In this document: positions 9,089-28,300 of the stretch, piece after piece | How the letters are laid out: each line of letters opens with the position of its first letter | Position numbering within the stretch: the first letter of the stretch is position 1 | Source: Erysipelotrichaceae bacterium MTC7 | Lineage (GTDB): Bacteria; Bacillota_I; Bacilli_A; Erysipelotrichales; Erysipelotrichaceae | Direction: 5' to 3' | NCBI GenBank assembly: GCA_001695645.1 | Contig: LVZN01000001.1 | Span: 180,001 to 212,000, forward strand | Length of the DNA: 32,000 nucleotides | The notes under the pieces: model-generated | Database searches by the model: none | Told to the model about the DNA's origin: nothing | The model's input: the letters and a program-made list of their open reading frames with translations, nothing else | Translations under genes and position numbers: made by a program

Positions 9089-9096
9089 ATGTTCTC

Positions 9097-9879
9097 CTAT
9101 TTTGGTAGTTTTTCTTTGTAATGTCCTGGTGTCACTCCGATGTGTTTTTTGAAAACAATACTAAAGTAGCGTTGATCATTAAAGCCACATGCAGTTGCCA
9201 CCTCATAGATTCGAATATTTGGATCAAAGAGCATCTCACAAGCCTTTTGGATGCGATATAAGACCAAATATTCATGAAAACTATAATCCATTTCTTCTTT
9301 AAATAAACGTGCTAAATAACTTGCAGAAACCCCAAGTTTATCAGCCGTATCAGCAATATTGATATCCTGCGCATAACATGTACGGATATATTCAACAACG
9401 CGATTGATATTCTCGTGATTGCTGTGTTTGGTTTGCTTCAAACTGTTCTCTAAATTTAAAGCAATGTCCTTTTGTGTGGATTGCCCATGACTTTGCACAA
9501 TCCGTATTCTATCAACCGAGCGTTTGGCACTTTCCAGTGCATCAACCAACCCTTCATCTTCAAAAGGCTTAACTAAATAATCGACAACACCAAGTTTGAT
9601 TGCATTTTTTGCATAATTAAAATCACTGAAAGCTGTTAATACAATAAATACCGTATCCACATCTTCAGAAACTTCTTCAATCATTTGCATCCCATCTTTT
9701 TTTGGCATCTTGATATCCGTAATTACAATATCTGGTTTTAACTTCAAGATAATGTCTTTACCTTCTTCACCGTTGGCAACATCACCAATGACTTTACAGC
9801 CAAGTTTATCCCATGGTGTAGTCATGACCAACCCTCTGCGTACCGTTGGTTCGTCTTCAACAATCACAATGTTATACAT
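9097..9879 (-). CDS. response regulator, CheY receiver plus AraC-type HTH (YesN-like)
   Basis: Receiver motifs are IVIVEDEP and DIKMPKKDG. The C-terminal AraC HTH reads GFNDQRYFSIVFKKHIGVTPGHY. It overlaps the kinase stop by 8 nt. Confidence 0.88.
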   Translation of the reverse strand: MYNIVIVEDEPTVRRGLVMTTPWDKLGCKVIGDVANGEEGKDIILKLKPDIVITDIKMPKKDGMQMIEEVSEDVDTVFIVLTAFSDFNYAKNAIKLGVVDYLVKPFEDEGLVDALESAKRSVDRIRIVQSHGQSTQKDIALNLENSLKQTKHSNHENINRVVEYIRTCYAQDINIADTADKLGVSASYLARLFKEEMDYSFHEYLVLYRIQKACEMLFDPNIRIYEVATACGFNDQRYFSIVFKKHIGVTPGHYKEKLPK

Positions 9880-11614: not shown

Positions 11615-11622
11615 ATATACTC

Positions 11623-13314
11623 CTAAACTACAGACACTTTTCCTTTACTAATAATATGGAAAAGAATAAACGATACAACCGTTGCTAATGTTAAAATACT
11701 AGCTAACGCTGCTGCCGTACCAAAACTTGCACGAACAACCTCTGTATAAATGGCAACTGAAATTGTTGCTGTCTTACCAGTATATAGCATAATACTAGAG
11801 CTTAGTTCGTTAATGGTACTAATCCAACTTAAAATGGCACCAGATACAATTCCAGGTAACATCAATCTAGCTGTAATCTTGAAAAATGAACGCATTGGTG
11901 AAACTCCAAGGTTAATTGATGCTTCTTCAATACTTTGATCCACTTGTTGCAGCATCGCACTCGATGAACGTACCGTATATGGCATTTTTCGAATGACATA
12001 GGCAACAATCATAATGATTGGCGTCCCAGTAATTGCCAGTGGTGGATTTTTAAAGGCTAAAGCCAATCCAATACCCAAGACAGCTCCAGGGATTACATAT
12101 GGGAACATCACAAGTACGTCCAATACTTCTGATGATTTACTTCTACGTTTGGTAATTAGATATGCGATAATTATACCTAATACTATTATAATAATAATTG
12201 CTATAAAAGAAAAAGTAAATGTATTACGTATGTTTGTTCCTAATTTATAGAAAATTGTTCGATAACTATCCAAACTGAATCCAGATACAAATAATGGACC
12301 TTTTGTTTTGATAAATGAAGTTACCACAACCACGATTTGTGGTAAAAATGTAATTGTTGCAACTAGAAACGTTAGTCCACTTAATAACACTCTTGGTAAC
12401 GTACGTAATTTTGTTACTACTGGCGGACGTAACGAACTCATGTTGTACACTTTTTTATCAATCACACGTTTTTGGAATAGCAATACGATAGTTGAAAATG
12501 AAACGATAATAATACTTAATGCACTTGCTAATCCAGCATTCCCACCAACTTCGCTCATAAACTCTTCGTAAACAAGAACCGGTAACACTTTAAACCCTTC
12601 ACCAATAAGCATCGGTGTCCCAAAATCTGCAAGAGATGACATGAATACCATGATTCCACCAGCTGCAATTGTTGGCATAATGACTGGAAATGTTACACTC
12701 ATAATTCTTCTAAATTTACTCATACCTAGGTTTTCTGCAGCTTCCTCTAAAGAAGAGTCAATGCTGTTTAACGCACCAGATACATATAAATATACATAAG
12801 GATATAGTTTCAATGTAAAGACGAGAATGATCCCAACAAATCCATAGATAGAAGGAACGTTAATTCCAATATTAGCTAATGTATTGGTAATTACTCCATT
12901 ACGTCCAAGCAACATGATCCATGAATAGGCACCGATAAAAGGTGGCGACATCAATGACATCACGATCATTACATTCACAATTCGTTTTCCCCACACGTTA
13001 TAACGTGCAGTTAAGTAAGCCAGTGGAACCCCAATCAATACAGCACTGATTGTTGTTACAACAGCAACCAATAAGGAATTGAATAGTGTACCATAATAAT
13101 ATTTAAATGAAACAAAGGTTTCAAAATTCACAAGTGAGAAGTTACCATCTACATCAAAGAAACTTCGCATAAATAACGAGACAAACGGATAAAGTAGGAA
13201 AATCAGAAAGACTAGAAATACAACGACTTTACTGATTGACCAAAAGTCCATTCGTTTGGTTTTCTTGTTAGTAAATAGTGCGCTCCATCTAATTGCTTTG
13301 ATTTTATTAAGCAT
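11623..13314 (-). CDS. ABC transporter permease, fused two-domain (FbpB/AfuB-type)
   Basis: This 563-aa protein has about 12 hydrophobic segments arranged as two repeated BPD-type halves. It overlaps the ATPase stop by 8 nt. Confidence 0.85.
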   Translation of the reverse strand: MLNKIKAIRWSALFTNKKTKRMDFWSISKVVVFLVFLIFLLYPFVSLFMRSFFDVDGNFSLVNFETFVSFKYYYGTLFNSLLVAVVTTISAVLIGVPLAYLTARYNVWGKRIVNVMIVMSLMSPPFIGAYSWIMLLGRNGVITNTLANIGINVPSIYGFVGIILVFTLKLYPYVYLYVSGALNSIDSSLEEAAENLGMSKFRRIMSVTFPVIMPTIAAGGIMVFMSSLADFGTPMLIGEGFKVLPVLVYEEFMSEVGGNAGLASALSIIIVSFSTIVLLFQKRVIDKKVYNMSSLRPPVVTKLRTLPRVLLSGLTFLVATITFLPQIVVVVTSFIKTKGPLFVSGFSLDSYRTIFYKLGTNIRNTFTFSFIAIIIIIVLGIIIAYLITKRRSKSSEVLDVLVMFPYVIPGAVLGIGLALAFKNPPLAITGTPIIMIVAYVIRKMPYTVRSSSAMLQQVDQSIEEASINLGVSPMRSFFKITARLMLPGIVSGAILSWISTINELSSSIMLYTGKTATISVAIYTEVVRASFGTAAALASILTLATVVSFILFHIISKGKVSVV

Positions 13315-14371
13315 TTAGATTCACCTTACCTTCTGCATCGAACACATTGATATCTTTCGCTGACAAGCAAACCTTCACTGGTCCTTCTGGTTTTGCTTCA
13401 TCAATGTTTTGCGTGTATTCGTTAACTTCAATCGATTGTCCGTTTGCTAATTCAATATCATAAGAGATAAAATCTCCCAGGAATGTTGATAGTACAATCT
13501 CACCAGCCAGACCTTCATCGGTTTGACTTACTGCAAACTGTTCTGGACGTACAGAAACCAGTACATCTTCACCTACTGTTGCATTTATGTTTTTATGAAA
13601 CGTATAACCATCAACTTCAATCGTATTGTCTGCAACAACTTTCCCTTTAAGGAAGTTTGATGTTCCAATGAAGTTAGAAACAAACTCACATGAAGGATTA
13701 CTATAAATAACATTTGGTTTGTCTACTTGCATAACTTCACCTTTGTTCATGACCGCAATACGATCGGAAATTGCAAGCGCTTCTTCTTGATCATGCGTTA
13801 CATAGATTGTAGTGATGTTTAACTTTCTTTGAAGTTTTTTAATTGTTGTACGCATTTGTACACGTAATTTTGCATCCAAGTTACTTAATGGCTCATCCAT
13901 TAATAAAATCTTTGGTTCAATGACAATCGCTCTTGCTAATGCAACACGTTGTTGTTGACCACCTGATAATTGACTTGGCATACGATCTTTTAAATGTTCA
14001 ATTTGTACCACTTCCAAAGCATTTTGAATACGTTTTGCTGCTTCATCTTTTGGTACCTTACGTGCTTTTAGTCCGTATCCAACATTATCATATACACTTA
14101 AATGCGGGAATACGGCATAGTTTTGAAAGACCATTCCAATATCACGTTTGTGTGCTGCCTCGTTATTGATCATTTTATCTGCGAAATAAATTTCCCCTTC
14201 TTCAATGGAGTTAAATCCTGCAATCATTCTGAGCAACGTTGTTTTACCACAACCACTTGGTCCTAACAATGTAAAGAACTCCCCTTCTTTAATTGATAAA
14301 GACACATCATCAATTGCTCTGAAATCCCCATACTCTTTTACTACTTCTTTTATATTCACATTTACGCTCAT
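13307..14371 (-). CDS. ABC transporter ATP-binding protein (PotA/FbpC-type with C-terminal TOBE-like domain)
   Basis: Contains Walker A GPSGCGKTT, signature LSGGQQQRVALARA and Walker B LLMDEPLS. AAAGGAG lies upstream of the ATG at 14371. Confidence 0.92.
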   Translation of the reverse strand: MSVNVNIKEVVKEYGDFRAIDDVSLSIKEGEFFTLLGPSGCGKTTLLRMIAGFNSIEEGEIYFADKMINNEAAHKRDIGMVFQNYAVFPHLSVYDNVGYGLKARKVPKDEAAKRIQNALEVVQIEHLKDRMPSQLSGGQQQRVALARAIVIEPKILLMDEPLSNLDAKLRVQMRTTIKKLQRKLNITTIYVTHDQEEALAISDRIAVMNKGEVMQVDKPNVIYSNPSCEFVSNFIGTSNFLKGKVVADNTIEVDGYTFHKNINATVGEDVLVSVRPEQFAVSQTDEGLAGEIVLSTFLGDFISYDIELANGQSIEVNEYTQNIDEAKPEGPVKVCLSAKDINVFDAEGKVNLNA

Positions 14372-14397
14372 TGTGTTTCTCCTTTAATTATAGAAAT

Positions 14398-14423
14398 GGG
14401 GGAAAGGAGACTTCCTTTCCCCC
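14398..14423 (-). other. intercistronic GC-rich hairpin between the binding-protein and ATPase genes
   Basis: A perfect 11-bp stem, GGGGGAAAGGA / TCCTTTCCCCC, with a 4-nt loop. It sits 6 nt after the SBP stop (14430-14432), and no strong U-run follows on the minus strand. Confidence 0.6.
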
Positions 14424-14429
14424 AATGGA

Positions 14430-15467
14430 TTAGTATTTAACAATAATTTGTTTCCATTCGTTTAGAATTTTTTCTTTATCATTTGATGCCCATTTAAAGT
14501 CATAGTCAACAAGTTTAATATCTTCTAATGGTTGTAACCCTTCTGGAGCAGCTACATCATCTCTAATTGAACGACGACTTAACTCTTTTGACATAATTTC
14601 TTGTGTTTCTTTACTTAAGACAAAATCGATAAATGCTTTTGCATTTGCTTTGTTTTTTGCATCTTTAATAATTGCAACTCCATCAGGAACAGCACTTGTT
14701 CCTTCTTCAGGATATACTATTTCAACTGGTGCACCGTTTAATACATATTTGATTGCTTCTTTTTCAAGTGTTAGTCCAAGTGCGTATTCTCCATCTGCTA
14801 CTCCTTTGTATACAGAAGAAGAACTTGATAATAATTTTCCATCTAAGTTTTGGTAGAATTTATCAATAAAGTCCCAACCTTTTCCATTGTCTTTACCATA
14901 TGCTTCCACCATTGTTGCTAGAATTGTGTAAGCTGATCCACTTTTAGCAGGATCTGCCATTGCGATTTTTCCTTCGAATTCAGCTTTTGTTGCATCAGCC
15001 CATTTTGTTGGAACATCTGCTTCACTTACTAAGTTTTTGTTGTACATAAGAACCATTGGAAGTGGGCTTTCCCCAATCCATTTATAATCTTTGTCGTAGT
15101 ATTTTGCATCAATGTGATCCAATTCTTTTGATTCGTATGCTTCAAAGTATTTTGTGTAAGATGCCAAAGACTCAGCTCCTCCACCCCATAGAACATCTCC
15201 TAAAGGATTTCCATCTTCAGACTCTACACGTTTAAGTAATTCCCCTGTACCAGCTGCCACAACATCAACCTTGATTCCTGTTTTTTCTTGGAATTCTTTT
15301 ACAACTAAGTTAATTGTTTCTGCAGGGTGAGGTGAATAAACAGTTAAACTATCTGTCTTTTCTTCTTTCCCACTGTCTTCTTTAGCTTTTGTGTCATCCC
15401 CTGACGAACACGCAACTAATGAGATTCCTAGCACAGCTAGTAAAAATAATTTAAAAAACTTTTTCAT
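14430..15467 (-). CDS. ABC transporter substrate-binding lipoprotein (FbpA/AfuA/PotD-like family; ligand unknown)
   Basis: The signal peptide has lipobox LVAC (MKKFFKLFLLAVLGISLVACSS). The ~320-aa mature domain has the TVYSPHP... start typical of this SBP family. AGGAGG lies 5 nt upstream. Confidence 0.85.
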   Translation of the reverse strand: MKKFFKLFLLAVLGISLVACSSGDDTKAKEDSGKEEKTDSLTVYSPHPAETINLVVKEFQEKTGIKVDVVAAGTGELLKRVESEDGNPLGDVLWGGGAESLASYTKYFEAYESKELDHIDAKYYDKDYKWIGESPLPMVLMYNKNLVSEADVPTKWADATKAEFEGKIAMADPAKSGSAYTILATMVEAYGKDNGKGWDFIDKFYQNLDGKLLSSSSSVYKGVADGEYALGLTLEKEAIKYVLNGAPVEIVYPEEGTSAVPDGVAIIKDAKNKANAKAFIDFVLSKETQEIMSKELSRRSIRDDVAAPEGLQPLEDIKLVDYDFKWASNDKEKILNEWKQIIVKY

Positions 15468-15501
15468 GATATCCTCCTCTTAAAGTTTTCTGTGTTATTT
15501 T

Positions 15502-15524
15502 GTTAAAACGCGTTTGGTTTTAAC
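15502..15524. promoter_or_regulatory. 8-bp inverted repeat in the ABC-operon leader
   Basis: GTTAAAAC gcgtttg GTTTTAAC lies 35-57 nt upstream of the SBP start codon. The same GTTAAAA core opens the two 32-bp direct repeats nearby. Confidence 0.4.
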
Positions 15525-15564
15525 CACCTGTCCATAGATTATCATGCACAAAAGGTGCGTACAA

Positions 15565-15596
15565 TGTTAAAAAAACACCAAAATGTTTAATATTTT
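15565..15596 (+). repeat. direct repeat copy 1 (32 bp) in the divergent control region
   Basis: TGTTAAAAAAACACCAAAATGTTTAATATTTT matches copy 2 at 31 of 32 positions, offset by exactly 42 bp. Confidence 0.9.
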
Positions 15597-15606
15597 GCAT
15601 GGCTAC

Positions 15607-15638
15607 TGTTAAAAAAAAACCAAAATGTTTAATATTTT
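15607..15638 (+). repeat. direct repeat copy 2 (32 bp), overlapping the -35 region of a candidate mutase promoter
   Basis: The sequence is TGTTAAAAAAAAACCAAAATGTTTAATATTTT. A weak -35 (TGTTTA, 15626-15631) is followed by 17 nt and TGTAAT (15649-15654). Confidence 0.9.
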
Positions 15639-15694
15639 ACTTACGTATTGTAATCCACGAAAAAATCCAATTAAATGGGGGTGAGGTGATAAGA

Positions 15695-17095
15695 ATGATA
15701 GAATTTGGAACAGGTGGCTGGAGAGCCATCATCGCTGATGGATTCACAAAAAGTAACGTCCAACAGCTCGCACAAGCAGTCGCATTAGACATTAAAAACC
15801 CGGAAGTAGTAATCGGGTATGATCGTCGATTTTTATCGGATGTAGCAGCTAAATGGTTTTCAGGGGTCCTAGCTGCCAATGGGGTGAAAGTACACTTCAT
15901 TGATCATGCTGCACCAACACCACAAATTATGTTTGCGGTACAACAAATGGACTTGGATTATGGAATTGCAATTACTGCAAGTCACAACCCTGCAACCTAT
16001 AATGGTATAAAAGTATTTGTTAAAGATGGAAAAGATGCAACCGAAAAAGATACAAAACGCTTAGAAAACATTTTACATGATGGCGTTGAAGTAAAAAGCA
16101 TTTCCTTTGAAGAAGGATTGGATAATGGATATGTATCGTATTACAATCCACAAAATGACTATATTGATAAAATCTTGTCGTTTATTGATATGAGTGCGAT
16201 TCGCAAAGCGAATCTTAAAGTTTTAGTTGACACTATGTATGGAGTTTCTAAAACATCGCTTTCTATTATACTAAATACAACACGTTGTGAACTTGATGTA
16301 ATTAACGATCGTCACGATACGTTGTTTGGTGGAAAGCTACCTTCACCATCAGCTGCAACACTACACAAGTTAAGCGATATGGTAAAAGCAAGTAATTACG
16401 ATTTAGGGATTGCCACAGATGGAGATGCTGACCGTTTGGGTATTATTGACAACAACGGTAAGTTTATTCACCCAAACACATTACTATCTTTGATTTACTA
16501 TTACTTACTTAGTTATAAAAAATGGAGTGGACCAGCAGCAAGAAACCTTTCAACCACACATATGCTTGATCGTATTGCAAAAGCATATGGACAAGAAGTT
16601 ATTGAAACACCAGTTGGTTTTAAGCACATTACGTATGCCATGGAAAACAACGGTGCCATCATTGGTGGTGAATCAAGTGGTGGATTAACTATTCAAGGTC
16701 ACATTCATGGAAAAGATGGAATCTTTGCAGCAAGTCTACTTGTAGAAATGATTGCTGTTACAGGGAAAAGTATTCATGAACTTGTTGAAGAGTTGTATGA
16801 AAAATTTGGTGAATTGTACACAGTTGAACGTGACTATAAATTTAGCCAAGCGAAGAAAGAGCAAATTAATAACATTCTTATGAAAGACAAATCTTTACCA
16901 GACTTCCACAATGAAGTGGAACGTGTAAGTTACATGGATGGTCTAAAAGTATACTTTACTGATGGCTCTTGGGTTAGTGCCCGTTTCTCAGGAACAGAAC
17001 CACTTCTACGAATCTTCAGTGAAACAGAAACAAACGCTTTAAGTGTCTCTTATGTGGAAACATTAGAAACATTCCTTGATATTAAAGCAATGTAA
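15695..17095 (+). CDS. alpha-D-phosphohexomutase (phosphoglucomutase/phosphomannomutase family)
   Basis: Contains TASHNP (catalytic Ser loop), DGDADR (Mg loop) and GGESSGG (sugar loop). The start is set at ATG 15695 (MIEFGTGGWR), behind GGGGGTGAGGTG. The 32 upstream codons in the ORF track run through the repeat/promoter region. Confidence 0.9.
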   Translation: MIEFGTGGWRAIIADGFTKSNVQQLAQAVALDIKNPEVVIGYDRRFLSDVAAKWFSGVLAANGVKVHFIDHAAPTPQIMFAVQQMDLDYGIAITASHNPATYNGIKVFVKDGKDATEKDTKRLENILHDGVEVKSISFEEGLDNGYVSYYNPQNDYIDKILSFIDMSAIRKANLKVLVDTMYGVSKTSLSIILNTTRCELDVINDRHDTLFGGKLPSPSAATLHKLSDMVKASNYDLGIATDGDADRLGIIDNNGKFIHPNTLLSLIYYYLLSYKKWSGPAARNLSTTHMLDRIAKAYGQEVIETPVGFKHITYAMENNGAIIGGESSGGLTIQGHIHGKDGIFAASLLVEMIAVTGKSIHELVEELYEKFGELYTVERDYKFSQAKKEQINNILMKDKSLPDFHNEVERVSYMDGLKVYFTDGSWVSARFSGTEPLLRIFSETETNALSVSYVETLETFLDIKAM

Positions 17096-17130
17096 TCATT
17101 TCCTCCAATGGATGATTGAATCTCTAACAT

Positions 17131-17158
17131 AAAAGCGGGACGCATATCCCGCTTTTAT
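17131..17158 (+). terminator. intrinsic terminator of the mutase gene
   Basis: AGCGGGA cgcata TCCCGCT (17134-17153), followed by TTTTATGTT. Confidence 0.8.
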
Positions 17159-17170
17159 GTTGTCTTGATG

Positions 17171-17200
17171 AAAAAAAGAGCAACTACTGCTAGTCACTCT
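17171..17200 (-). terminator. intrinsic terminator of the 64-aa gene
   Basis: On the minus strand: AGAGTGACTA gcag TAGTTGCTCT (10-bp stem with 2 G-U pairs), followed by TTTTTTT. Confidence 0.55.
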
Positions 17201-17216
17201 TTTGGGCAAAACAAGT

Positions 17217-17411
17217 TTATTTTTTAACTTTGTCTTTTAATTCATCGAATTTATCTTCAACTGCATCTTTTGCATCTCCAGCTTTATCTGCTACATCTTC
17301 ACCAAAGTCTTTCACTTTATCAGCAGCTTCTTTCGCCTTATCTGATACATCTTTTCCAAAATCTTCTGCTTTGTCTTTCAATTCATCTAATTTGTTTTTT
17401 AAATCTGCCAT
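17217..17411 (-). CDS. small highly charged repeat protein (64 aa; stress-protein/LEA-like composition)
   Basis: The protein is MADLKNKLDELKDKAEDFGKDVSDKAKEAADKVKDFGEDVADKAGDAKDAVEDKFDELKDKVKK. AGGAG lies 9 nt upstream and the gene has its own terminator. Internal repeats are DFG(K/E)DV(S/A)DKA x2 and (L/F)DELKDK at both ends. Confidence 0.7.
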   Translation of the reverse strand: MADLKNKLDELKDKAEDFGKDVSDKAKEAADKVKDFGEDVADKAGDAKDAVEDKFDELKDKVKK

Positions 17412-17520
17412 AATATGTTCCTCCTATATTATCCCTGGTCTTTCAACCTGTAAATATAGTGTACCATAGATAACTTTTCTTTCAATTTAGACGCTCAATA
17501 TTGTTATGAAAATATAAATA

Positions 17521-18279
17521 TTATCCAATTAGATACATATCTTTTAATTTTTGACGCTCCTTATCACTTACATATAAAGCCTTTGTAATATAGGCATCAA
17601 ACGAACCATAATTTTTATTCGCTTCATCGTATGCTGCTTCTAAGAAGTCTGCACTTACTGACATAAGTGCCAAAAAGCGTTCAATTTCTTGTTCTGTTTT
17701 TCCTTTTGCACGTAGTCCTTTAGCCATTTCTTCGTTGGCTTGTTTACGACTGGCATTTGTCTTCAAGTAATCTTCCATAATGTCTGCTTCAGACACTCCA
17801 AGTATCGTTAAGATGATTGCTGCAGCAAGACCGGTCCGATCTTTACCTGCTTGACAGTGAAATAGCACAGCTCCAATTTCCTGCTTAAGCAATACATCCA
17901 CAAACGCACGATATTGCTTTTGTGCATAGGGATTCATAATCAACTGTCGATACAATCCTTTCATCAAACCATGAACATCATGTTCATCAATGCTTTGCAT
18001 CAACGTTTCTTGGGTTGTTGTTTTCGTATCACCTTCCATGATACTAATGTGATAGTTTTTCACTCCATCGATTTGATCATCAGGGTGTTTAACCAGTTCA
18101 TCATCTCGTCGCAAATCAACAACTGTTCTTAATTCGTACGTATCTACCAAAGTATCTTGTTCATTCTTTGGAAGATCCTGTAATACCCCACTTCTAAGCA
18201 ATCGATGTTTCTTTACTGTTTCCCCACTTCTTGTCTTAAGGCCCCCTAAGTCTCTAAAGTTAACTAATTTTTCAAACAT
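17521..18279 (-). CDS. protein-tyrosine/dual-specificity phosphatase-like protein (CX5R)
   Basis: Contains the HCQAGKDRTG active-site loop. The N-terminal NFRDLGG is typical of the bacterial Y_phosphatase3-type family. Confidence 0.8.
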   Translation of the reverse strand: MFEKLVNFRDLGGLKTRSGETVKKHRLLRSGVLQDLPKNEQDTLVDTYELRTVVDLRRDDELVKHPDDQIDGVKNYHISIMEGDTKTTTQETLMQSIDEHDVHGLMKGLYRQLIMNPYAQKQYRAFVDVLLKQEIGAVLFHCQAGKDRTGLAAAIILTILGVSEADIMEDYLKTNASRKQANEEMAKGLRAKGKTEQEIERFLALMSVSADFLEAAYDEANKNYGSFDAYITKALYVSDKERQKLKDMYLIG

Positions 18280-18362
18280 ATTCTACCTCTTCTAATTATG
18301 TATATATTGTAGCACACAGATATGACCCAAACCTGCTGTTGCTTATTTTATTCGAATAGTAT

Positions 18363-18391
18363 TTGTGTATCACACACTAATTTTCTACAAT
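18363..18391 (+). promoter_or_regulatory. candidate sigma-A promoter reading into the silent hsdS cassette and the recombinase gene
   Basis: TTGTGT (18363-18368), 17 nt spacer, TACAAT (18386-18391). The -35 is weak. This is the only plausible plus-strand promoter I can see upstream of 19589. Confidence 0.3.
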
Positions 18392-18468
18392 GAAGATACC
18401 ACATATAACACTCTTACTAATCAAACTTTACAAGTAATAGTTTTTTAATCACATGCAAGTGATAAAAC

Positions 18469-18481
18469 TTGGGAACAGCGT
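18469..18481 (+). repeat. IR core W-a (5' edge of TRD-A')
   Basis: TTGGGAACAGCGT is the inverted copy of 21111-21123 and 21690-21702, and 19/21 over TTGGGAACAGCGTnAGTTnGG. Confidence 0.85.
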
Positions 18482-18958
18482 GAGTTGGGAGAATACCTAG
18501 AATTTTCCAATATAAAAAATAAAGAAGATAGTTATTCAAGGAGTGAGGTGCTTTCTGTTTCAAGTACGTTGGGGGTCGTAAATCAACTTGAATTAAAAGG
18601 AAGATCTTTTGCTGGGGAGTCGCTAAAAGGTTATTACATTGTGAAAAATAGAGATGTGATTTATGCAAAGTCCATTTCTAGCAATAATCCTTATGGGACA
18701 ATACGGACTAATCGCATTCATGAAGGCGTTGTTTCGCCACTTTATGCAGTTTTTAAGCCAAAGGAGAATGTCCATCCTGAATTTGTTCAAGTTTACTTTG
18801 AGTTAGATACAAGAATGAACAATTATATTTTCCCATTAGTTAATATGGGAGACAGGTTTATTCAAGTTTCGGGAAACGATGTAATCAGTGGAAATGTAAT
18901 ATTCCCTAGAATTGAAGAGCAAATGAAGATTTCATTGTTTTTTGATTCTCTCGACCAA

Positions 18959-18975
18959 ACTATTACTCTTCATCA
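18959..18975 (+). repeat. IR core L-a (3' edge of TRD-A')
   Basis: ACTATTACTCTTCATCA is a perfect 17-bp inverted copy of 21214-21230. Confidence 0.9.
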
Positions 18976-19035
18976 TCGTGAGATTTTTTCATTTTCCACG
19001 TTTTTTTACGTGTTTTTTATCATTTTCACAATAAC

Positions 19036-19054
19036 TTGGGAACATCGTAAGTTA
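19036..19054 (+). repeat. IR core W-b (5' edge of TRD-B')
   Basis: TTGGGAACATCGTAAGTTA matches the inverted hsdS copies (TTGGGAACAGCGTAAGTTA) at 18 of 19 positions. Confidence 0.85.
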
Positions 19055-19520
19055 TCTGATGTGATGTCTAAATTTATTGTCCCTATGCGAGATAAGCCAA
19101 AAGAGTTTGGTGGAGATATTCCATGGACTCGGATTGAAGATATTGAAGGAAAATTTCTTAATGATAGTTTATCAGGTCAATATGTTTCGGAAGACATTGT
19201 TCAAAAAATGAATCTTAAGATTATCCCTGCAGGTTCGTTAATCGTCTCTGCAAGTGCGACATTTGGTGTAGTTGCCGTTGTGACACGAGATTTGATCACA
19301 AACCAAACATTTATTGGACTTGTACCGAGAAAGGAATTCGATGTCGATTTCTTATATACATTTTTACAATCGCCTACTGTGCAACGTAAGATGAGATTGG
19401 AATCGGCTGGTTCAACTATCTTCTATATTTCTAGGCAAACGTTTGAGAATATGAGTTTTGCGACACCTGAGAAAGATGAACAACATAAGATTGGAGCTTT
19501 CTTCGCGAGTTTGGACACAA

Positions 19521-19536
19521 CTATCACTCTTCATCA
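19521..19536 (+). repeat. IR core L-b (3' edge of TRD-B')
   Basis: CTATCACTCTTCATCA is a perfect 16-bp inverted copy of 20623-20638. Confidence 0.9.
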
Positions 19537-19588
19537 AAAACAGTGACTATTACTGTTTTAGAAATACACATATAAAGGAGGTGCAATT

Positions 19589-20509
19589 ATGCAAAAAGAA
19601 AATATGTTATTTCAAGATTATTTTATTGAATGGGTTAATTTATATAAAAGCGGTGCGGTCCGAGATGTCACCATAACAAAATACAAAATCGCACACAAGA
19701 ATCTTATAAAACTTGCCCCAATATTGAAAATTTCAGAGTTAGATCGTAAGTCTTATCAAAAGCTTTTGAATGATTATGCATTAACGCACGAAAAGCAGAC
19801 AACAATGGATTTTCATCATCTATTAAAAGGTTCCATACTTGATGCATTAGAAGAAGGTTATATTGATATCGATCCAACAAGAAAAGTGGTAATTAAAGGT
19901 AAAACTCCAAGAAAAAAGAAGATCAAGTATTTAAATCAATTCGAATTACAAAAACTTGTGAGTGAATTAACCCTTAATGAAGTTGTTTCCTGGGATTGGT
20001 TGATATTACTGATCGCTAAAACAGGATTACGTTTTTCAGAAGCTCTAGCTTTAACACCAGAAGACTTTGACTTCACGAGACAAGTAATTAATGTAAGTAA
20101 GACATGGGATTATAAATCTATAAACGGTGGATTTGAACCAACTAAAAACAAGGCTTCCATGAGAAAAGTACAAATAGATTGGCATACAACGATGCAACTC
20201 AATCCACTACTTAAAGAACTTCCAAAAAATGATCCCATTTTTGTGGGTGGAAGAGTTTTTAACTCAACAATCAATAATCGACTAAAAAAATACTGTGAAA
20301 AAGCTAATATTCCTGTAATCTCTGTACACGGACTAAGACACACACATGCCTCTCTACTACTGTTTGCTGGAGTTTCAATTGCCAGTGTTGCTCATAGATT
20401 AGGTCATTCTAATATGACAACAACACAAAAAACATATTTGCATGTGATTCAAGAGTTAGAAAACCAAGATAATGACAAAGTTATGCGTTATCTCTCTGCA
20501 CTTTGTTAA
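19589..20509 (+). CDS. tyrosine site-specific recombinase (phage-integrase family), candidate hsdS invertase
   Basis: The catalytic set is visible: TGLRFSEAL (Arg I), HGLRHTHAS (HxxR) and LGHSNMTTTQKTYLHV (His/Tyr). AAAGGAGG lies 7 nt upstream. The gene sits between hsdS' and hsdS. Confidence 0.88.
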   Translation: MQKENMLFQDYFIEWVNLYKSGAVRDVTITKYKIAHKNLIKLAPILKISELDRKSYQKLLNDYALTHEKQTTMDFHHLLKGSILDALEEGYIDIDPTRKVVIKGKTPRKKKIKYLNQFELQKLVSELTLNEVVSWDWLILLIAKTGLRFSEALALTPEDFDFTRQVINVSKTWDYKSINGGFEPTKNKASMRKVQIDWHTTMQLNPLLKELPKNDPIFVGGRVFNSTINNRLKKYCEKANIPVISVHGLRHTHASLLLFAGVSIASVAHRLGHSNMTTTQKTYLHVIQELENQDNDKVMRYLSALC

Positions 20510-20535: not shown

Positions 20536-20558
20536 AGGACGCAATTAAATTGCGTCCT
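20536..20558. terminator. palindromic hairpin between the convergent recombinase and hsdS genes
   Basis: AGGACGCA attaaat TGCGTCCT. The minus strand continues TTTGGTACTTTT. It lies 3 nt after the hsdS stop (20562-20564). Confidence 0.65.
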
Positions 20559-20622
20559 ACTCTATATAAACATTTTTTGAAGATATGCTTTCTTTAGTTC
20601 CTGTAATTTTTCGATTTTTTTC

Positions 20623-20638
20623 TGATGAAGAGTGATAG
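20623..20638 (-). repeat. IR core L-2 (3' edge of TRD2 of hsdS)
   Basis: The reverse complement reads CTATCACTCTTCATCA and pairs with 19521-19536. Confidence 0.9.
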
Positions 20639-21094
20639 CGTAATCAAATTGCTCAAAAAGCGCACCGATTTTGTCTTGTTCTACGATGTTAGGTATCATC
20701 ACAGGCATTTTAGACATTTGTTTTCCAGATATCTCTACGAATGTTGATCCTGCTCCCATTACTTCTCCGTACCGTTTTAATTCATGTGATCGTGAAAAAA
20801 TGAAGTAACTGTTTAGTACATTTTTATGAGGTACGATTGACTGAAAGCCTTGGTTAGTAGTTGCTTCTTTGGCCAAAATAGCGGTGTTTCCGATCCCAGC
20901 ACGTGAAGTAAACAGAACAGTTCCAACTGGCAAGATTTTAGTTGAACTCTTCATTCGACCAAGGTCAGTGATTGTTCGCTGACTCTTAGCAACATATATT
21001 TCTTCTCCAATTTCAGCTGGCGTATACCAATCAATATCACCATTCCAATATTCTGCATTCGACGTGCTTGGAGTCCCTCCCCCAATTATATCAG

Positions 21095-21123
21095 CAACTT
21101 TGCCTAACTTACGCTGTTCCCAA
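21095..21123 (-). repeat. 29-bp repeat W-2 (central conserved region, 5' edge of TRD2)
   Basis: The reverse complement reads TTGGGAACAGCGTAAGTTAGGCAAAGTTG. It is a perfect direct repeat of 21674-21702 and is inverted relative to 18469-18481 and 19036-19054. Confidence 0.9.
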
Positions 21124-21213
21124 GCATCAGTAAAACCATCAAATCGCACACTTTGATCGAAAATTTTCTGTAGAAAACCACTCTTTACCGTTTTCATACG
21201 TTCTAACTCTTTC

Positions 21214-21230
21214 TGATGAAGAGTAATAGT
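21214..21230 (-). repeat. IR core L-1 (3' edge of TRD1 of hsdS)
   Basis: The reverse complement reads ACTATTACTCTTCATCA and pairs with 18959-18975. Confidence 0.9.
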
Positions 21231-21673
21231 ATTGTCTATGTTTTCAAATAAATGGCCGATTTTAACTTGCTCTTTCATATTAGGATAACCAATTTCATAT
21301 GGTTCAATGTGTTTATTATTAATTTGAGGAATGGTGGATGTATCGGCTATTTTATATAGCCCAGTTCGACCTATAAATGTATAAAGAAATTTATAATTAA
21401 TATCCACCGGTTCTAATGCCATTATATTAGTATCCATATATGCATCTCTTCCTAATATTCGTACTTTATTCGTGAGTATAGCTGCTCCTCTTTTAGGGAA
21501 AATAATACTTCCTCTTTTTATCTTTTATTATCTTTCATGAGGTTTTACGTTCCAAATACTTCTGTCTTGAATTCGTGCGGAATAGTTCAGGTCATCTACT
21601 TTAATATATGGTTCTGAATCTTGACTCTCAGAAGTAATAAATTCAGATGGGGACCATCCCGACCTAATATTAA

Positions 21674-21702
21674 CAACTTTGCCTAACTTACGCTGTTCCC
21701 AA
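21674..21702 (-). repeat. 29-bp repeat W-1 (N-terminal conserved region, 5' edge of TRD1)
   Basis: Identical to 21095-21123, 579 bp (193 codons) away in the same orientation. Confidence 0.9.
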
Positions 21703-21744
21703 TCATCAGTGAACCCACTAAACCTAATTAATGGTTTTTTCTTA

Positions 21745-23349
21745 TCATTCATGACGGAACACCTTTTTTGTTGCTTCTATGATATCTTTACTTTCATCTG
21801 TAATGGCAAGCTGATTTACTAGCTCTAGAAATTCTTTCTCAGTTTGCTTAATTTCGTTGTTGATTTCTTCAATTTCCTTGCAAACTTGAACAATATCAAT
21901 TGGTTCTTCTTCTTCAAAAGTATCTACATACCTTGGAATATTTAAATTGTATTCATTTTCTTTAATTTCAGCCATGGTAGCTAAGTGAGAATACTTATCA
22001 ATTTCTTCTCTATTCTTGAATGTATCTACAATTTTATCAACATTGTCATTCGTAAGTCGATTTTGATTTTTACCGGACTCAAATTCGTTTGATGCATCAA
22101 TGAACAATACATGTTCATTATCTTCTCTACATTTTTTGAATACTAAAATACAGGTTGGAATTGACGTTCCAAAGAATATGTTAGCTGGCAAACCAATAAC
22201 CGCATCTAAGTAATTCTTTTCCTTGATTAAGAATGTACGAATCACACCTTCTGCTGCCCCTCTAAAAAGCACACCGTGTGGTAGTACAACTGCAAGAGTA
22301 CCATTTTCATCTAAGTGATAAATCATATCTTGTACGAAGGCAAAGTCAGCTTTTGATTTTGGTGCAAGTTTACCGTATTGGCTAAATCTTGGGTCTAATA
22401 AAAACTTCTGGTCTGCGCTCCAGTTCGCACTATAAGGTGGATTGGCAACAATTGCTTCAAAGGTTTGATCTTCACCAATCATTGGGTGTGTTAGTGTATC
22501 CGTGTTGTAAATTGCAAAATCTTTATATCTAATGTCATGCAACAACATATTCATTCGTGCCAAGTTATATGTAGTTGTATTTAATTCCTGCCCATAGTAA
22601 TTATAAACATGTGCGTGTTTACCTACACGCAGCAACAAAGACCCCGATCCACAAGCTGGGTCATATACACTTCGAAGATCTTTTTTATCTATGGTTACAA
22701 TGCGTGTAAGGATTTCAGACACTTGTTGTGGTGTATAGAATTCGCCTGCTTTTTTCCCTGCACTAGCTGCAAACTGTGAAATCAAAAATTCATACGCATC
22801 ACCAAGCACATCAATTTCTGCTTCTCCAATCCCAAAATTGATTTGATCTATGTTATTCATGACTTTTGCAATCAGCTCAGTCCTAGAATTATTATCGCGT
22901 CCAAGTTTGGAACTTTGTAGATCCATATCATCAAATAAGTGATTGAAATCATCTTCAGAATCACGACCGATAGTAGATTCTTCAATCTCATTAATTGCTT
23001 GCTGTAACATTTCGATTTCAAAATCTCCAGTGCGAATTTTTTCAATTAATGTAGAAAATAAGAATTTAGGATCAATAACATATCCCAATCCTCGAATCAT
23101 CTCTTCAACCAAAGTATCTTTAAGTTCGTCACTATTCCAAGCATCAGCATAAGAAATATTATCGTCATCACCTAAAAGTGTATTTGAATAGTCGATTACT
23201 TTTTCTGAAAGAAAACGATAAAAAATCAAACCTAGGATGTAATTCTTAAAGTCACTAGCATCCATGCTTCCTCGTAAATCATTTGCAATCGCCCATAATT
23301 TCTTATTCAGTTCAGCTTGTTGCACTACTTGTTTTTGCTCAACAGTCAT
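21745..23349 (-). CDS. hsdM: Type I restriction-modification system, N6-adenine DNA methyltransferase subunit
   Basis: The HsdM N-terminal region reads LWAIANDLRGSMDASDFKNYILGLIFYRFLSEK. The AdoMet motif is DPACGSGSLL and the catalytic motif is IVANPPYS. AAGGAGA lies upstream. Confidence 0.93.
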   Translation of the reverse strand: MTVEQKQVVQQAELNKKLWAIANDLRGSMDASDFKNYILGLIFYRFLSEKVIDYSNTLLGDDDNISYADAWNSDELKDTLVEEMIRGLGYVIDPKFLFSTLIEKIRTGDFEIEMLQQAINEIEESTIGRDSEDDFNHLFDDMDLQSSKLGRDNNSRTELIAKVMNNIDQINFGIGEAEIDVLGDAYEFLISQFAASAGKKAGEFYTPQQVSEILTRIVTIDKKDLRSVYDPACGSGSLLLRVGKHAHVYNYYGQELNTTTYNLARMNMLLHDIRYKDFAIYNTDTLTHPMIGEDQTFEAIVANPPYSANWSADQKFLLDPRFSQYGKLAPKSKADFAFVQDMIYHLDENGTLAVVLPHGVLFRGAAEGVIRTFLIKEKNYLDAVIGLPANIFFGTSIPTCILVFKKCREDNEHVLFIDASNEFESGKNQNRLTNDNVDKIVDTFKNREEIDKYSHLATMAEIKENEYNLNIPRYVDTFEEEEPIDIVQVCKEIEEINNEIKQTEKEFLELVNQLAITDESKDIIEATKKVFRHE

Positions 23350-23361
23350 TGTATTCTCCTT

Positions 23362-26142
23362 CTACTCATATTTCATTCCAAGTGATTCAATGTCTTGGAC
23401 AAAGTCTTTTTTCTTTTTGCTTTTCTCAAGTAATCCACCTTTCATATCTTGGATAACTTTTGTTCCATCGATATATCCTACGAACTCTTGTTCCGCCACA
23501 TAGGCGGCAACTTTATTGTAATCAAGGTCATACTTGTTTGATAACTTTTTCATTTCATAGAGTTTTTGTTCAGATTCAAACTCTTCTAGTTTAAATGAAA
23601 TATCATCATCTTCATTTAAAGTTGGGACCACTTTTTCTAAGAACATTTCGATTAACTCACGCTTGCTTCTTAGCTTTTCATCAGTTGCAGTTTTTAGAAT
23701 TTCCAAGATATTTTTAATATCTTTAATCTGTTTTGTACGATCTGTTAGCTCAATGTTTTGAATTAATTCAAGTATATATCCAACATCAATTTTATCAGTT
23801 CGAATCAATTCCAATTCAAAATCAATTTCCTGAAGCACAGATACTTTATCTTTTTCTATCTTTCTTGTTAGTTCATAATAACGGCCTTTATAATCTTCAA
23901 ATTCTTGTTCATTCATTGGAACATCTTTCCAGTCAAACTCATTAAACGTTTTTAAGGATATTGCTGTTCTAGCAAGTAACTTAAAGAGACGAATAAACTT
24001 TGCTTTTTGATCATCCGTTTCTAATGCATCAATTGAATCTAATGTTGGTACAATTTTCTTAAACGCAATGTACGCATTTTTGAATTCTTCTACATAATAT
24101 GCATATTCTTTCATAAGAACATTGTTAACATCTTCTGTTTGTGAGAACAGTTTTATTGCATCATCAGTGTTTTTCTTAAGATTTTGAAAGCATACGATAT
24201 TCCCATATTGTTTTGTTGCATCATAAATCCGATTAGTCCGTGAATATGCTTGGATTAACGTGTGATAACGAAGGTTTCTGTCCACATATAATGTGTTTAA
24301 CCGTCTTGCATCAAATCCTGTTAGAAACATATCGACAACTAACAAAATATCTATTTCTGTATTTTTTACACGTTTAGACAAATCGATAAAGTATTGAAGA
24401 TAGGTGTCCGTTGAGTAGTTTGTTCCAAACATGACATTATAGTCATCAATAATGTTTTGCAACATATCTCGTTGATGTATCTTTTCACCTGTTTCATTTT
24501 TATAATCTTCCTGAAGTTGACTATTGGCAGCATAAGAGAAAATTGCTCCAATCTTTAGTGGTTTATCAAGCTCTTTATTTTTTTCTTGAAATTGGTTGTA
24601 GTATTGATATAAAAGTGGAACTCCACCTTCACTCGTATTCACTGTAAACATGGCATTAAATGTTCGATTGACCGTTTTCATATCATGATGCTTTACGATT
24701 TCTTCAACAATATTACGCGTTCTTTCCTCTGAGGTTAAGATTTCATAAGTATTTATTCCTTCAACTTTTTCTTCGATTGCTCCTTCTTCACGCCAATCGA
24801 CAGATTTATAATACTCTACCTTAAACCCTAGTACATTTCCATCATGTATCGCATCTTTTATCAAATAACTATGTAAGTTTTCACCGAATATATCCGCAGT
24901 AGAACGTCCGTCAATACTCTTATTCACAGAGAATCGTGGTGTCCCTGTAAACCCGAAATATTGCGCATTATCAAAATACATGTCGATTTCTTTGTGCATG
25001 TCTCCAAACTGTGAACGATGACACTCATCAATGATAAATACAACACGTTTGTCTTTATATTGTCCCAATTTCTGTGGATATTTTTTTACTGCATTCGATA
25101 ACTTTTGAATCGTTGTAACGATAAGTTTTTTATTATTATCATTTATTTGTTTTACAAGTTGATTTGTTGAGTTGGTCGTATCGATGCTATCTGGACAAAA
25201 CTTATTAAATTCTTCAATGGTCTGTGAATCTAAGTCTCTTCGATCAACCAAGAAAAATATTTGGTCAACTTTCTCATTATCTTGTAAGATTTGACTAGCT
25301 TTAAATGAAGTTAGTGTTTTACCAGATCCTGTTGTGTGCCATATATATCCGTTTCTATTTGAATTCTCAACTCTGTGGATAATTGCTTCAACTGCATATA
25401 CTTGGTATGGCCTTAGTACCATTAAGTTTTTTTCCGACTCATAAATAACCGTATATCTTGCAATCATTTTTGCAATATGACACTTTTCTAAAAAAAACGT
25501 CGTAAACTCTTTCAGGTTGTTATAGCGATTGTTTTTATCGTCTGTCCAATAAAACGTGTACTTTGAAGATAGCTCTTTTCCACTATTCCCCAGGTATTTT
25601 GTATCTGTCCCATTGCTAATTACAAAAATTTGAATGAAACGAAATAACTTTGTATATTTGTATGAATGTAGTTGGTATCTTGTGATTTGATGAAATGCCT
25701 CATCTGTGTTTCCACCCCTACGTTTTAGTTCAATCTGAACCAATGGCAGCCCATTGATTAAAATTGTAACATCATAGCGATTTTCGTACTTTCCTTGTAT
25801 GGTAATTTGATTAGCTACTTGAAAGATATTTTTACACCAATCGCGTTTGTTGAATAATTCAAGGTATAAAACAGTTCCATCATCACGTGTAATATTTTGC
25901 AAATTCCTTAGAATTTTTGCTGAATCATAAACACCCTTATTTGAAATCAATTGCATTAATCTATCGAATTCACTGTCAGATAAATCACGATTTTTTAATC
26001 GATCTTTATTATGTTTGTTAAGTTGGGTTCTAAAATTATGAATCAAAGACACTTCGTCTTTGACATTAACTCTTTCATATCCCATATTTACTAAGCGTTC
26101 AACTAACTGTTCTTCTAATTGTGCCTCACTTTGATAACCCAT
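23362..26142 (-). CDS. hsdR: Type I restriction enzyme, R (helicase/endonuclease) subunit
   Basis: Contains the Walker A/motif I sequence HTTGSGKT and the DEAD-box variant FIIDECHRSQ. The N-terminal MGYQSEAQLEEQLV... is typical of HsdR. The 926-aa gene lies directly upstream of hsdM (12-nt gap). Confidence 0.92.
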   Translation of the reverse strand: MGYQSEAQLEEQLVERLVNMGYERVNVKDEVSLIHNFRTQLNKHNKDRLKNRDLSDSEFDRLMQLISNKGVYDSAKILRNLQNITRDDGTVLYLELFNKRDWCKNIFQVANQITIQGKYENRYDVTILINGLPLVQIELKRRGGNTDEAFHQITRYQLHSYKYTKLFRFIQIFVISNGTDTKYLGNSGKELSSKYTFYWTDDKNNRYNNLKEFTTFFLEKCHIAKMIARYTVIYESEKNLMVLRPYQVYAVEAIIHRVENSNRNGYIWHTTGSGKTLTSFKASQILQDNEKVDQIFFLVDRRDLDSQTIEEFNKFCPDSIDTTNSTNQLVKQINDNNKKLIVTTIQKLSNAVKKYPQKLGQYKDKRVVFIIDECHRSQFGDMHKEIDMYFDNAQYFGFTGTPRFSVNKSIDGRSTADIFGENLHSYLIKDAIHDGNVLGFKVEYYKSVDWREEGAIEEKVEGINTYEILTSEERTRNIVEEIVKHHDMKTVNRTFNAMFTVNTSEGGVPLLYQYYNQFQEKNKELDKPLKIGAIFSYAANSQLQEDYKNETGEKIHQRDMLQNIIDDYNVMFGTNYSTDTYLQYFIDLSKRVKNTEIDILLVVDMFLTGFDARRLNTLYVDRNLRYHTLIQAYSRTNRIYDATKQYGNIVCFQNLKKNTDDAIKLFSQTEDVNNVLMKEYAYYVEEFKNAYIAFKKIVPTLDSIDALETDDQKAKFIRLFKLLARTAISLKTFNEFDWKDVPMNEQEFEDYKGRYYELTRKIEKDKVSVLQEIDFELELIRTDKIDVGYILELIQNIELTDRTKQIKDIKNILEILKTATDEKLRSKRELIEMFLEKVVPTLNEDDDISFKLEEFESEQKLYEMKKLSNKYDLDYNKVAAYVAEQEFVGYIDGTKVIQDMKGGLLEKSKKKKDFVQDIESLGMKYE

Positions 26143-27035: not shown

Positions 27036-27857
27036 ATGAAAATAATGATTCAAACAATACTCAAAGCACAAAGGATACAAATCTTCCTATTTGTTGTCTT
27101 ACTATCATTTTTTACCATTTATGATCAACAAATCGTAACTTTCTTGTACCATCCAGATAGTTTATATGGAGCATTTTTTGAAAAGTTCACCTATCTGCCA
27201 GGATGTTATTTATTATTATTAAGTACAACAATCTTATACGTCCATTACTTTAAGAAACAAACCAATTGGAAACTTCAATATCTAACCATGTTTCTATGTG
27301 CCATCGCTTTTTTCATCACAAGTTATTATTTCTATGAAGCTCTTGCTGGTTTCGGAATGATTCTTCATGTTTTGATTTCCATAATCATCATTTACGCTTG
27401 CATTAGATGGGACCAACTTGATTCTTATGTTAAAACTGCATGGATTGTTTTATTTACAATTGTTGCTGCTTTACTTACTGTGGAACTACTCAAAGTAATT
27501 TGGGGTCGTGTTCGTCCTTACGCACATATCGAAAATCCAAGTTATTACACAAACTGGTTTCACATCAATACGAATCGCTTTAAAACCTATTTTGATTTAA
27601 GCGATACAACCAAGTCGTTTCCTTCTGGCCATAGCAATTGGGCTACCTTAACACTATGTTATTCCTTCTATTTTAAGAAGCATAAAAAGCAAGCACTTGC
27701 CATAGCTGTTATATTCATTTTACTTGTCACAACTTCGCGCGTGATTTATGGCATGCATCATCCTAGCGATGTGCTATTTGGAAGCGCTATTGCTTATACC
27801 TATTACACAATCGCTAAATACTCAATACATGAAAAGAACCGAACCATCAAGGACTGA
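27036..27857 (+). CDS. PAP2-family (acid/lipid phosphate) phosphatase, membrane-bound
   Basis: The three PAP2 motifs are present: KVIWGRVRPY, PSGHS and SRVIYGMHHPSDV. The start is uncertain (ATG at 27021, 27036 or 27045, none with an RBS). The GTG at 26985 in the ORF track lies inside the upstream terminator. Confidence 0.8.
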   Translation: MKIMIQTILKAQRIQIFLFVVLLSFFTIYDQQIVTFLYHPDSLYGAFFEKFTYLPGCYLLLLSTTILYVHYFKKQTNWKLQYLTMFLCAIAFFITSYYFYEALAGFGMILHVLISIIIIYACIRWDQLDSYVKTAWIVLFTIVAALLTVELLKVIWGRVRPYAHIENPSYYTNWFHINTNRFKTYFDLSDTTKSFPSGHSNWATLTLCYSFYFKKHKKQALAIAVIFILLVTTSRVIYGMHHPSDVLFGSAIAYTYYTIAKYSIHEKNRTIKD

Positions 27858-27874
27858 TTGTTCGGTTCTTTTTT
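27835..27874. terminator. bidirectional terminator between the convergent PAP2 and lipoprotein genes
   Basis: AGAACCGAAC (27835-27844) / GTTCGGTTCT (27860-27869) with a 15-nt loop. An A-run lies upstream and TTTTT downstream. Confidence 0.7.
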
Positions 27875-28262
27875 AATATAATTTATCTTTCAATTCCACT
27901 CTTTGTGTCATGCATTCATCTTCTTTGGTACACAGTTCAATATCATAGTACATGACATTTTCTTTTGTTCCCCCATCAAATGAAACTTCAGCAAAGACAG
28001 TTCCTTTTTCCACATTAATCGTATATTCTGGACGAAACTCTAATTTGTTTTCATCCATTCCTGAGAAAAAGTGAACTTCATCTTCTACAATTTTCAGACA
28101 AACGTATCCTTCTCCAGATCCTGCACAATTGCTGTAATCGCTTGGGAAGATGACTCCTTGATCATCTGTTGTTTCATTTGACTCCTCTTGGTTTGTATTT
28201 GAATTACATGCCACAAGCATGCAAACCATTACAAACAGAATCAATTTTAATTTTGTTTTCAT
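27873..28262 (-). CDS. small lipoprotein, function unknown
   Basis: Signal peptide MKTKLKLILFVMVCMLVAC with a lipobox. The mature part has four Cys residues and no recognisable motif. Confidence 0.7.
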   Translation of the reverse strand: MKTKLKLILFVMVCMLVACNSNTNQEESNETTDDQGVIFPSDYSNCAGSGEGYVCLKIVEDEVHFFSGMDENKLEFRPEYTINVEKGTVFAEVSFDGGTKENVMYYDIELCTKEDECMTQRVELKDKLY

Positions 28263-28300
28263 ATGTCCCCTAATTAAACTATAAACACTTTTCTACAACC

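Follow-up and report, generated by a model that had tools for sequence, protein, structure and literature searches.

[quoted passage not shown] On the minus strand of the 32-kb window (the whole stretch of DNA analysed here), a TAA at 21530–21528 is followed directly by a second TAA at 21527–21525, both in frame and both within TRD1 of hsdS. The site reads AAA CCT CAT GAA AGA TAA TAA AAG ATA AAA AGA GGA AGT ATT ATT TTC CCT AAA AGA GGA GCA GCT. Translation from 21752 to 20562 gives 397 codons, among which codons 75 and 76 are the only internal stops, and the reading frame is identical upstream and downstream of them. The two ORFs of 74 aa (21528–21752) and 291 aa (20562–21437) lie in one frame, as the 315 nt between their starts show. 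All features of the locus are collected in Table 1.

Table 1. Genes, cassettes, stop codons and putative recombination sites of the Type I locus in window coordinates
Feature	Position	Strand	Basis or remark
hsdR, 926 aa, intact, EcoR124_C-type C-terminus	23362–26142	−	Pfam HSDR_N, SWI2_SNF2, T1R_D3-like, EcoR124_C
hsdM, 534 aa, intact	21745–23349	−	Pfam N6_Mtase, HsdM_N
hsdS in expression slot: N-terminal conserved region, TRD1 (stop-bearing), central conserved region, TRD2, distal conserved region	20562–21752	−	Homology, Pfam
Tandem TAA TAA, hsdS codons 75–76, in TRD1	21525–21530	−	Translation; homologues have Y/F then K/Q/H, gap-free
74-codon N-terminal fragment	21528–21752	−	Exact 74-aa protein in NCBI nr
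291-codon ORF from first ATG past the stops: last third of TRD1, central conserved region, TRD2, distal conserved region	20562–21437	−	Putative restart product
Left site a, TTGGGAACAGCGTAAGTTAGG, encodes WEQRKLG, upstream of TRD1	21682–21702	−	Sister-strain homology ends exactly here
Left site b, upstream of TRD2	21103–21123	−	Equivalent is the junction in sister contig L008
Left site c, upstream of cassette A, 2 mismatches	18469–18489	+	Sister contigs L011 and L012 diverge or end here
Left site d, upstream of cassette B, 3 mismatches	19036–19056	+	Pattern match
Right site after TRD1, ACTATTACTCTTCATCA, encodes TITLHQ	21214–21230	−	17-nt perfect inverted match to cassette A right site
Right site after TRD2	20623–20639	−	16-nt perfect inverted match to cassette B right site
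Right site after cassette A	18959–18975	+	Repeat match
Right site after cassette B	19520–19536	+	Repeat match
Tyrosine recombinase, 306 aa, between hsdS and hsdS′, convergent with hsdS	19589–20509	+	Pfam Phage_integrase
Silent hsdS′, two cassettes	18470–19546	+	Without start codon or N-terminal conserved region
Silent cassette A	18490–18958	+	Part of hsdS′
Silent cassette B	19057–19519	+	Part of hsdS′

The Type I locus and its interrupted hsdS

[quoted passage not shown] The neighbouring recombinase matches Pfam Phage_integrase over positions 2–168 of 172, returns Xer-like hits in NCBIfam and has PDB integrase matches that span both domains. On its other side, the hsdS′ frame opens past a TAA at 18446–18448; it contains no ATG and is promoterless. 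Between its cassettes A and B lies a hydrophobic linker of 19 residues in place of a coiled-coil conserved region; for this reason hsdS′ could not, as far as its sequence tells, function as one continuous gene if the whole locus were inverted once. Oppositely oriented hsdS sequences, one of them startless, thus occur together with a recombinase in the locus and with inverted repeats flanking the TRDs, and on this gene content the locus is classed as a recombinase-associated multi-hsdS Type I system, that is, an epigenetic inverton or shufflon. A scan of reference genomes with HsdM retrieved only relatives of at most 66% identity, without a recombinase, and no orthologous locus in another species.

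Two features of the non-coding and linker DNA were also recorded. The linker DNA (18976–19035, plus strand) encodes a hydrophobic T-rich stretch, REIFSFSTFFYVFFIIFTI, and contains a small hairpin followed by a T run (18997–19012). Between the convergent hsdS and recombinase genes lies a second hairpin, AGGACGCAATTTAATTGCGTCCT, at 20536–20558; it is likely to be their shared terminator, although the scan passed it over on account of its interrupted T run.

The interrupted gene is a genuine hsdS. Translated through the stops, it matches HsdS TRDs both before and after them (E-values down to 8e-111), and the Pfam domain Methylase_S is found in the downstream part. A chance ORF was rejected on the strength of these flanking matches. 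All four modules of a two-TRD, two-conserved-region HsdS are present in the DNA, with TAA TAA standing at codons 75 and 76 of what would otherwise be one frame. These observations bear out three points of a preliminary description made from the same DNA: that the two ORFs share a frame broken by TAA TAA within TRD1, as translation confirms; that the sequence past the stops is ordinary TRD in a gene otherwise intact, given the Methylase_S domain, the gap-free homologues described below and the lack of any other internal stop; and that the locus is a shufflon-type Type I system with silent TRDs, for which the recombinase, the silent cassettes and their flanking sites were all found.

Nothing in the window suggests that the stops are read as sense. 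TAA is an ordinary terminator here, ending 12 of the 26 long ORFs, and an Rfam search of the 32-kb window returned no element; stop-codon reassignment and programmed read-through were rejected on these grounds. Nor does hsdS contain a simple-sequence repeat tract, the A runs near the stops being only 4–5 nt long.

The ATG of hsdS (21752) overlaps the hsdM stop codon inside ATGAATGA, so translational coupling of hsdS to hsdM is plausible. Coupled translation would end after 74 residues, and the 74-codon fragment, in which no Pfam domain was found, is then the only product expected of it. Type I methylation and restriction both need an HsdS with two TRDs. We infer from this requirement that the system is specificity-null in its present arrangement.

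A functional product could in principle still arise if translation restarted at the ATG at 21437, or if transcription began internally, and the resulting 291-aa protein joined HsdM in an enzyme of altered specificity, so that the locus would not be null. The in-frame ATG is preceded by AGGAAGAG, which ends 8 nt upstream, and the stops themselves introduce a −10-like hexamer, GATAAT, 17 nt beyond TTGGAA (21527–21555, minus strand), so that a weak promoter-like element spans them. Promoter-like matches around the stops are nevertheless fewer than in shuffled sequence (10 against 14.5 expected), and an internal promoter made by the stops was dismissed as having no significance against the shuffles. 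Many TRD1 homologues are naturally half-size HsdS proteins of about 200 aa, and NgoAV, as cited in PMC7394358, offers a precedent for a truncated HsdS with altered specificity. With the N-terminal conserved region and some two thirds of TRD1 missing, however, the 291-aa fragment is not a clean half-HsdS, and its exact sequence is absent from the protein collection searched. We consider such a restart product very improbable. When the 291-aa, 74-aa and HsdM products were looked up by exact sequence, no encoding contig was retrieved.

Among the TRD1 homologues, a large share are single-TRD (half-size) HsdS proteins of about 170–230 aa, drawn from many phyla. Their size suggests that the TRD1-type family often works in homodimeric half-subunits.

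Origin and age of the stop codons

A protein search with TRD1, the stops masked, returned 479 HsdS proteins, the best of which are 56–72% identical. Twenty homologues align with the TRD1 of the window without a gap from residue 60 to residue 160. In the column of the first stop they carry Y (7), F (4), A (5) or V (3), and in that of the second K (6), H (5), Q (4) or other residues. The nearest contexts are H-Q-K-Y-Q-K-M-K, S-Q-K-Y-K-K-I-P and H-S-K-Y-P-K-I-K, against H-E-R-stop-stop-K-I-K in the window. Because the homologues run gap-free across the site, the stops are, by this alignment, substitutions of two sense codons with no change in length, and a frameshift pair with altered length was rejected on the same grounds. 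To judge from distant homologues only, the replaced codons were most likely Tyr followed by Lys or Gln.

Conversion of TAT-AAA or TAT-CAA to TAA-TAA alters two adjacent bases, the last of one codon and the first of the next. If two nonsense hits arose independently, the chance of their lying in neighbouring codons would be about 0.005, and we therefore infer that a single tandem dinucleotide change is the simplest origin of both stops. From a TAT-AAA ancestor, and from that ancestor only, gain of an A followed by loss of an A in the A-rich run gives the same result; such an indel pair is possible there but is no more parsimonious than tandem substitution. The earlier view that a simple mutation hardly gives two adjacent stops is thus not upheld, since one dinucleotide substitution suffices and the homologues are gap-free, while the comparison with related sequences that had been proposed alongside it did yield sense codons at the site, Tyr or Phe and then Lys or Gln, in protein homologues.

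In the reading that we favour, a small recent loss-of-function lesion would have struck the TRD cassette that now occupies the TRD1 position of the expressed hsdS, a change of TA[T][A/C]AA to TA[A][T]AA at two adjacent bases converting two sense codons to TAA TAA. Other sources of the stops were considered. Gene conversion from within the window was rejected, as the 26 nt surrounding the stops occur there only once. An engineered double-stop knock-out was set aside: the host is a Breznakia-like gut anaerobe, for which we know of no genetic tools. In the protein collection searched, no TRD1 copy came closer than 72% identity, and the DNA pattern flanking the stops had no match in JGI metagenome contigs.

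The stops might also be an artefact of sequencing or assembly, the true codons being sense codons such as TAT AAA, with TA and AT swapped or mis-polished in an A-rich stretch. TAT-AAA-AAG and TAA-TAA-AAG differ by the exchange of two adjacent bases, equivalent to a gained and then a lost A; two homologues (P0010 and P0012) read Y-K-K at the site, and both gene and operon are otherwise intact. Typical long-read errors, however, are single homopolymer indels that would shift the frame, whereas here there is no net change in length, and short-read consensus errors that alter two adjacent bases are rare. The 74-aa fragment is, moreover, identical to a protein deposited at NCBI from a contig of 281,765 bp; the stops consequently belong to the public assembly, whose deposited annotation includes the truncated product, and the locus lies within this 281-kb contig, away from its edge. 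An artefact is therefore an unlikely account.

A metagenomic sister strain, described in the next section, allowed selection on the operon to be estimated. Relative to it, hsdR differs by 9 synonymous and 1 non-synonymous changes and hsdM by 24 and 3, each with a pN/pS of 0.03; the two genes together thus show 33 synonymous against 4 non-synonymous changes. Among the neighbouring genes compared, five of six fall at a pN/pS of 0.00–0.05, the adjacent phosphatase gene standing at 0.17. Because hsdR and hsdM match five of these six genes, a long period of relaxed selection is not indicated. Of 70 strongly conserved positions in the family, TRD1 itself agrees with the consensus at 69, a share that falls within the 0.85–1.00 of intact homologues. 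A long-dead restriction–modification system was rejected on both counts, and since pN/pS is low and TRD1 undecayed, the lesion is either recent on the scale of the divergence between the two strains or periodically bypassed, the operon still being used through other functional arrangements.

Cassette exchange and possible rescue

The left site occurs in four copies, two on each strand, where 0.00 are expected by chance, and the right site likewise in four copies, two on each strand, where 0.10 are expected; neither occurs elsewhere in the 32 kb. The perfect inverted runs are short. For the left sites they measure 13–14 nt when a or b is paired with c and 9–10 nt when a or b is paired with d; for the right sites they reach 17 nt between TRD1 and cassette A and 16 nt between TRD2 and cassette B.

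Indirect evidence that the left sites recombine comes from the sister strain. The HsdM cluster has a second member, P0241, which is 99% identical and lies on three metagenome contigs (L008–L010), and the flanking phosphatase leads to two further contigs of the same strain (L011 and L012). L008 matches the window at 98.9% identity over 27820–21682, stopping exactly at left site a, and beyond it homology resumes only over the central conserved region (21251–21102). In L011 the match, at 98.1% identity, runs from 7518 to 18492 and stops exactly at left site c. The TRDs that the sister strain carries between these sites are different and intact, with at least 258 open codons. L008:9175–9301 and L011:1–127, both from one assembly, are identical and consist of a 30-nt left site and 97 nt of one TRD; this shared 127-nt segment follows the hsdS central region in L008 and the silent-end flank in L011. 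The two corresponding Logan contigs (L009 and L012; read run ERR4682414) both end in the same left site, which is perfect over 30 nt in the sister strain.

One TRD start thus stands in two contexts and in opposite orientation, the pattern expected if inversion at left sites b and c were polymorphic. Coverage of the sister strain is only 2–3×, and the shared ends of L008 and L011 may instead stem from a second, inverted copy of that TRD or from the co-occurrence of two strains. Whether inversion, duplicate or two strains lie behind them, the contigs indicate recent cassette exchange at the left sites in this species.

The sister contig differs from the window outside the cassettes as well. L008:1–2456, compared with window 27820–28300, carries a MazG-like gene and a gene for a 578-aa SLFN-like helicase beside a PAP2-family gene; both are absent from the window. 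This patch adjoining the restriction–modification locus is strain-variable and possibly part of a defence island.

When inversion was allowed in simulation between any oppositely oriented pair of like sites, a stop-free canonical HsdS was reached after two inversions, one left-by-left and one right-by-right. One such product joins the N-terminal region, cassette A, the central region, TRD2 and the distal region into 402 aa. Single inversions gave non-canonical products, for example cassette A, linker and cassette B in series, and by the simulation many arrangements of the locus would be aberrant even without stop codons. Rescue by cassette exchange is thus geometrically possible. The earlier proposal that shuffling could swap TRD1 for a silent TRD is supported as far as geometry goes, restored function being a prediction, and the perfect repeat runs measure only 9–17 nt.

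Just to the left of left site c lies a 15-nt near-palindromic element, TTTAATCACATGCAA (18444–18458), which recurs inverted with 1 mismatch at 20438–20452, within the 3′ end of the recombinase gene. The pair could be a chance match or an accessory site for the recombinase.

These properties also bear on a more purposeful reading, in which the stop-bearing TRD is maintained as a null cassette and shuffling toggles the restriction–modification system and its methylome between OFF and ON as well as among specificities. Such a programmed OFF allele would fit the intact state and strong purifying selection of hsdR, hsdM, the recombinase and the other three cassettes, a TRD1 that is otherwise undecayed, the tight termination that tandem stops give, and a left site that is recombinogenic in the sister strain, with a stop-free canonical HsdS two inversions away; ON/OFF switching by truncating inversions has, besides, already been proposed for some Type I invertons (PMC7672463). 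A recent accidental lesion, however, predicts an equal lack of decay. Conservation of the stops is unsupported, TRD1 being unique to this genome in the data searched; the perfect inverted-repeat runs are only 9–14 nt on the left and 16–17 nt on the right; and a dedicated null cassette is hardly needed where many simulated arrangements are already non-canonical without a stop. The suggestion in the preliminary description that a stop-bearing TRD serves as a null allele, adding ON/OFF to specificity switching, accordingly finds no direct support, as no second copy of this TRD was seen in the databases searched, and we regard a maintained OFF allele as quite improbable. An accidental nonsense lesion, the reading that we prefer, follows from how such cassettes would evolve: shufflon cassettes would be under selection only while in the expressed slot, so lesions of this kind are an expected by-product. 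A neutral lesion in a part-time-selected cassette explains the data equally well as a maintained OFF allele.

Significance and comparison with known systems

This is a modest curiosity among systems of an already familiar kind. Provided that the lesion has been read correctly, shufflon cassettes can gain disabling mutations while silent and then enter the expressed slot, and a complete-looking R-M-S operon is no proof of an active methylome. A maintained null cassette, if real, would give inversion-driven Type I phase variation an additional OFF state, which has so far been proposed only through truncating inversions.

The host is a member of the Firmicutes in the classification used by the surveys of Huang et al. 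and Atack et al., and its nearest named relative is a cockroach-gut isolate. At 478–6792 on the minus strand of the window lie seven genes in a row whose sizes and order fit trpE-G-D-C-F-B-A. Homology confirmed TrpB, which shares 86% identity with the Breznakia blatticola protein and 99% with that of a further genome; on this one gene, the host would be an Erysipelotrichaceae bacterium close to Breznakia.

The arrangement resembles SpnD39III of Streptococcus pneumoniae (ivr/cod; recombinase CreX/PsrA/IvrR), which likewise combines hsdR-hsdM-hsdS with a tyrosine recombinase and a silent, oppositely oriented hsdS′. There, TRD exchange takes place at short inverted repeats within the conserved parts of hsdS, as is predicted here from sequence. 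According to PMC7394358, the shortest working repeat in SpnD39III is 15 bp, comparable to the 16–17-nt right sites of the present locus. Three differences stand out: SpnD39III also has repeats of 85 bp and longer, against perfect runs of 9–17 nt here; all six SpnD39III alleles are functional specificities, with no nonsense-bearing cassette among them; and the silent-cassette linker of the present locus lacks a usable central coiled-coil region.

A premature stop that truncates the specificity subunit is also known from NgoAV and other repeat-tract phase-variable hsdS genes. In the NgoAV type it arises by reversible slippage of a simple-sequence repeat and yields a product of TRD1 plus central region with a new specificity, unlike the present gene, which has no repeat tract and a 74-aa product without a complete TRD.

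Finally, the locus shares multiple hsdS sequences, an invertase and inverted repeats flanking hsdS sequence with the Type I invertons surveyed by Huang et al. 2020 (PMC7672463) and Atack et al. 2020 (PMC7394358). With longest perfect runs of 14 nt for the left site and 17 nt for the right, it lies below the detection threshold of Atack et al., who asked for inverted repeats 100% identical over 20 bp or more (PMC7394358). Huang et al. noted that some arrangements, those with clade-2 invertases, would truncate HsdS and so switch the system ON and OFF (PMC7672463). As proposed there, OFF states come from the placement of the repeats, whereas in the locus described here the OFF state would come from a nonsense lesion inside a cassette.
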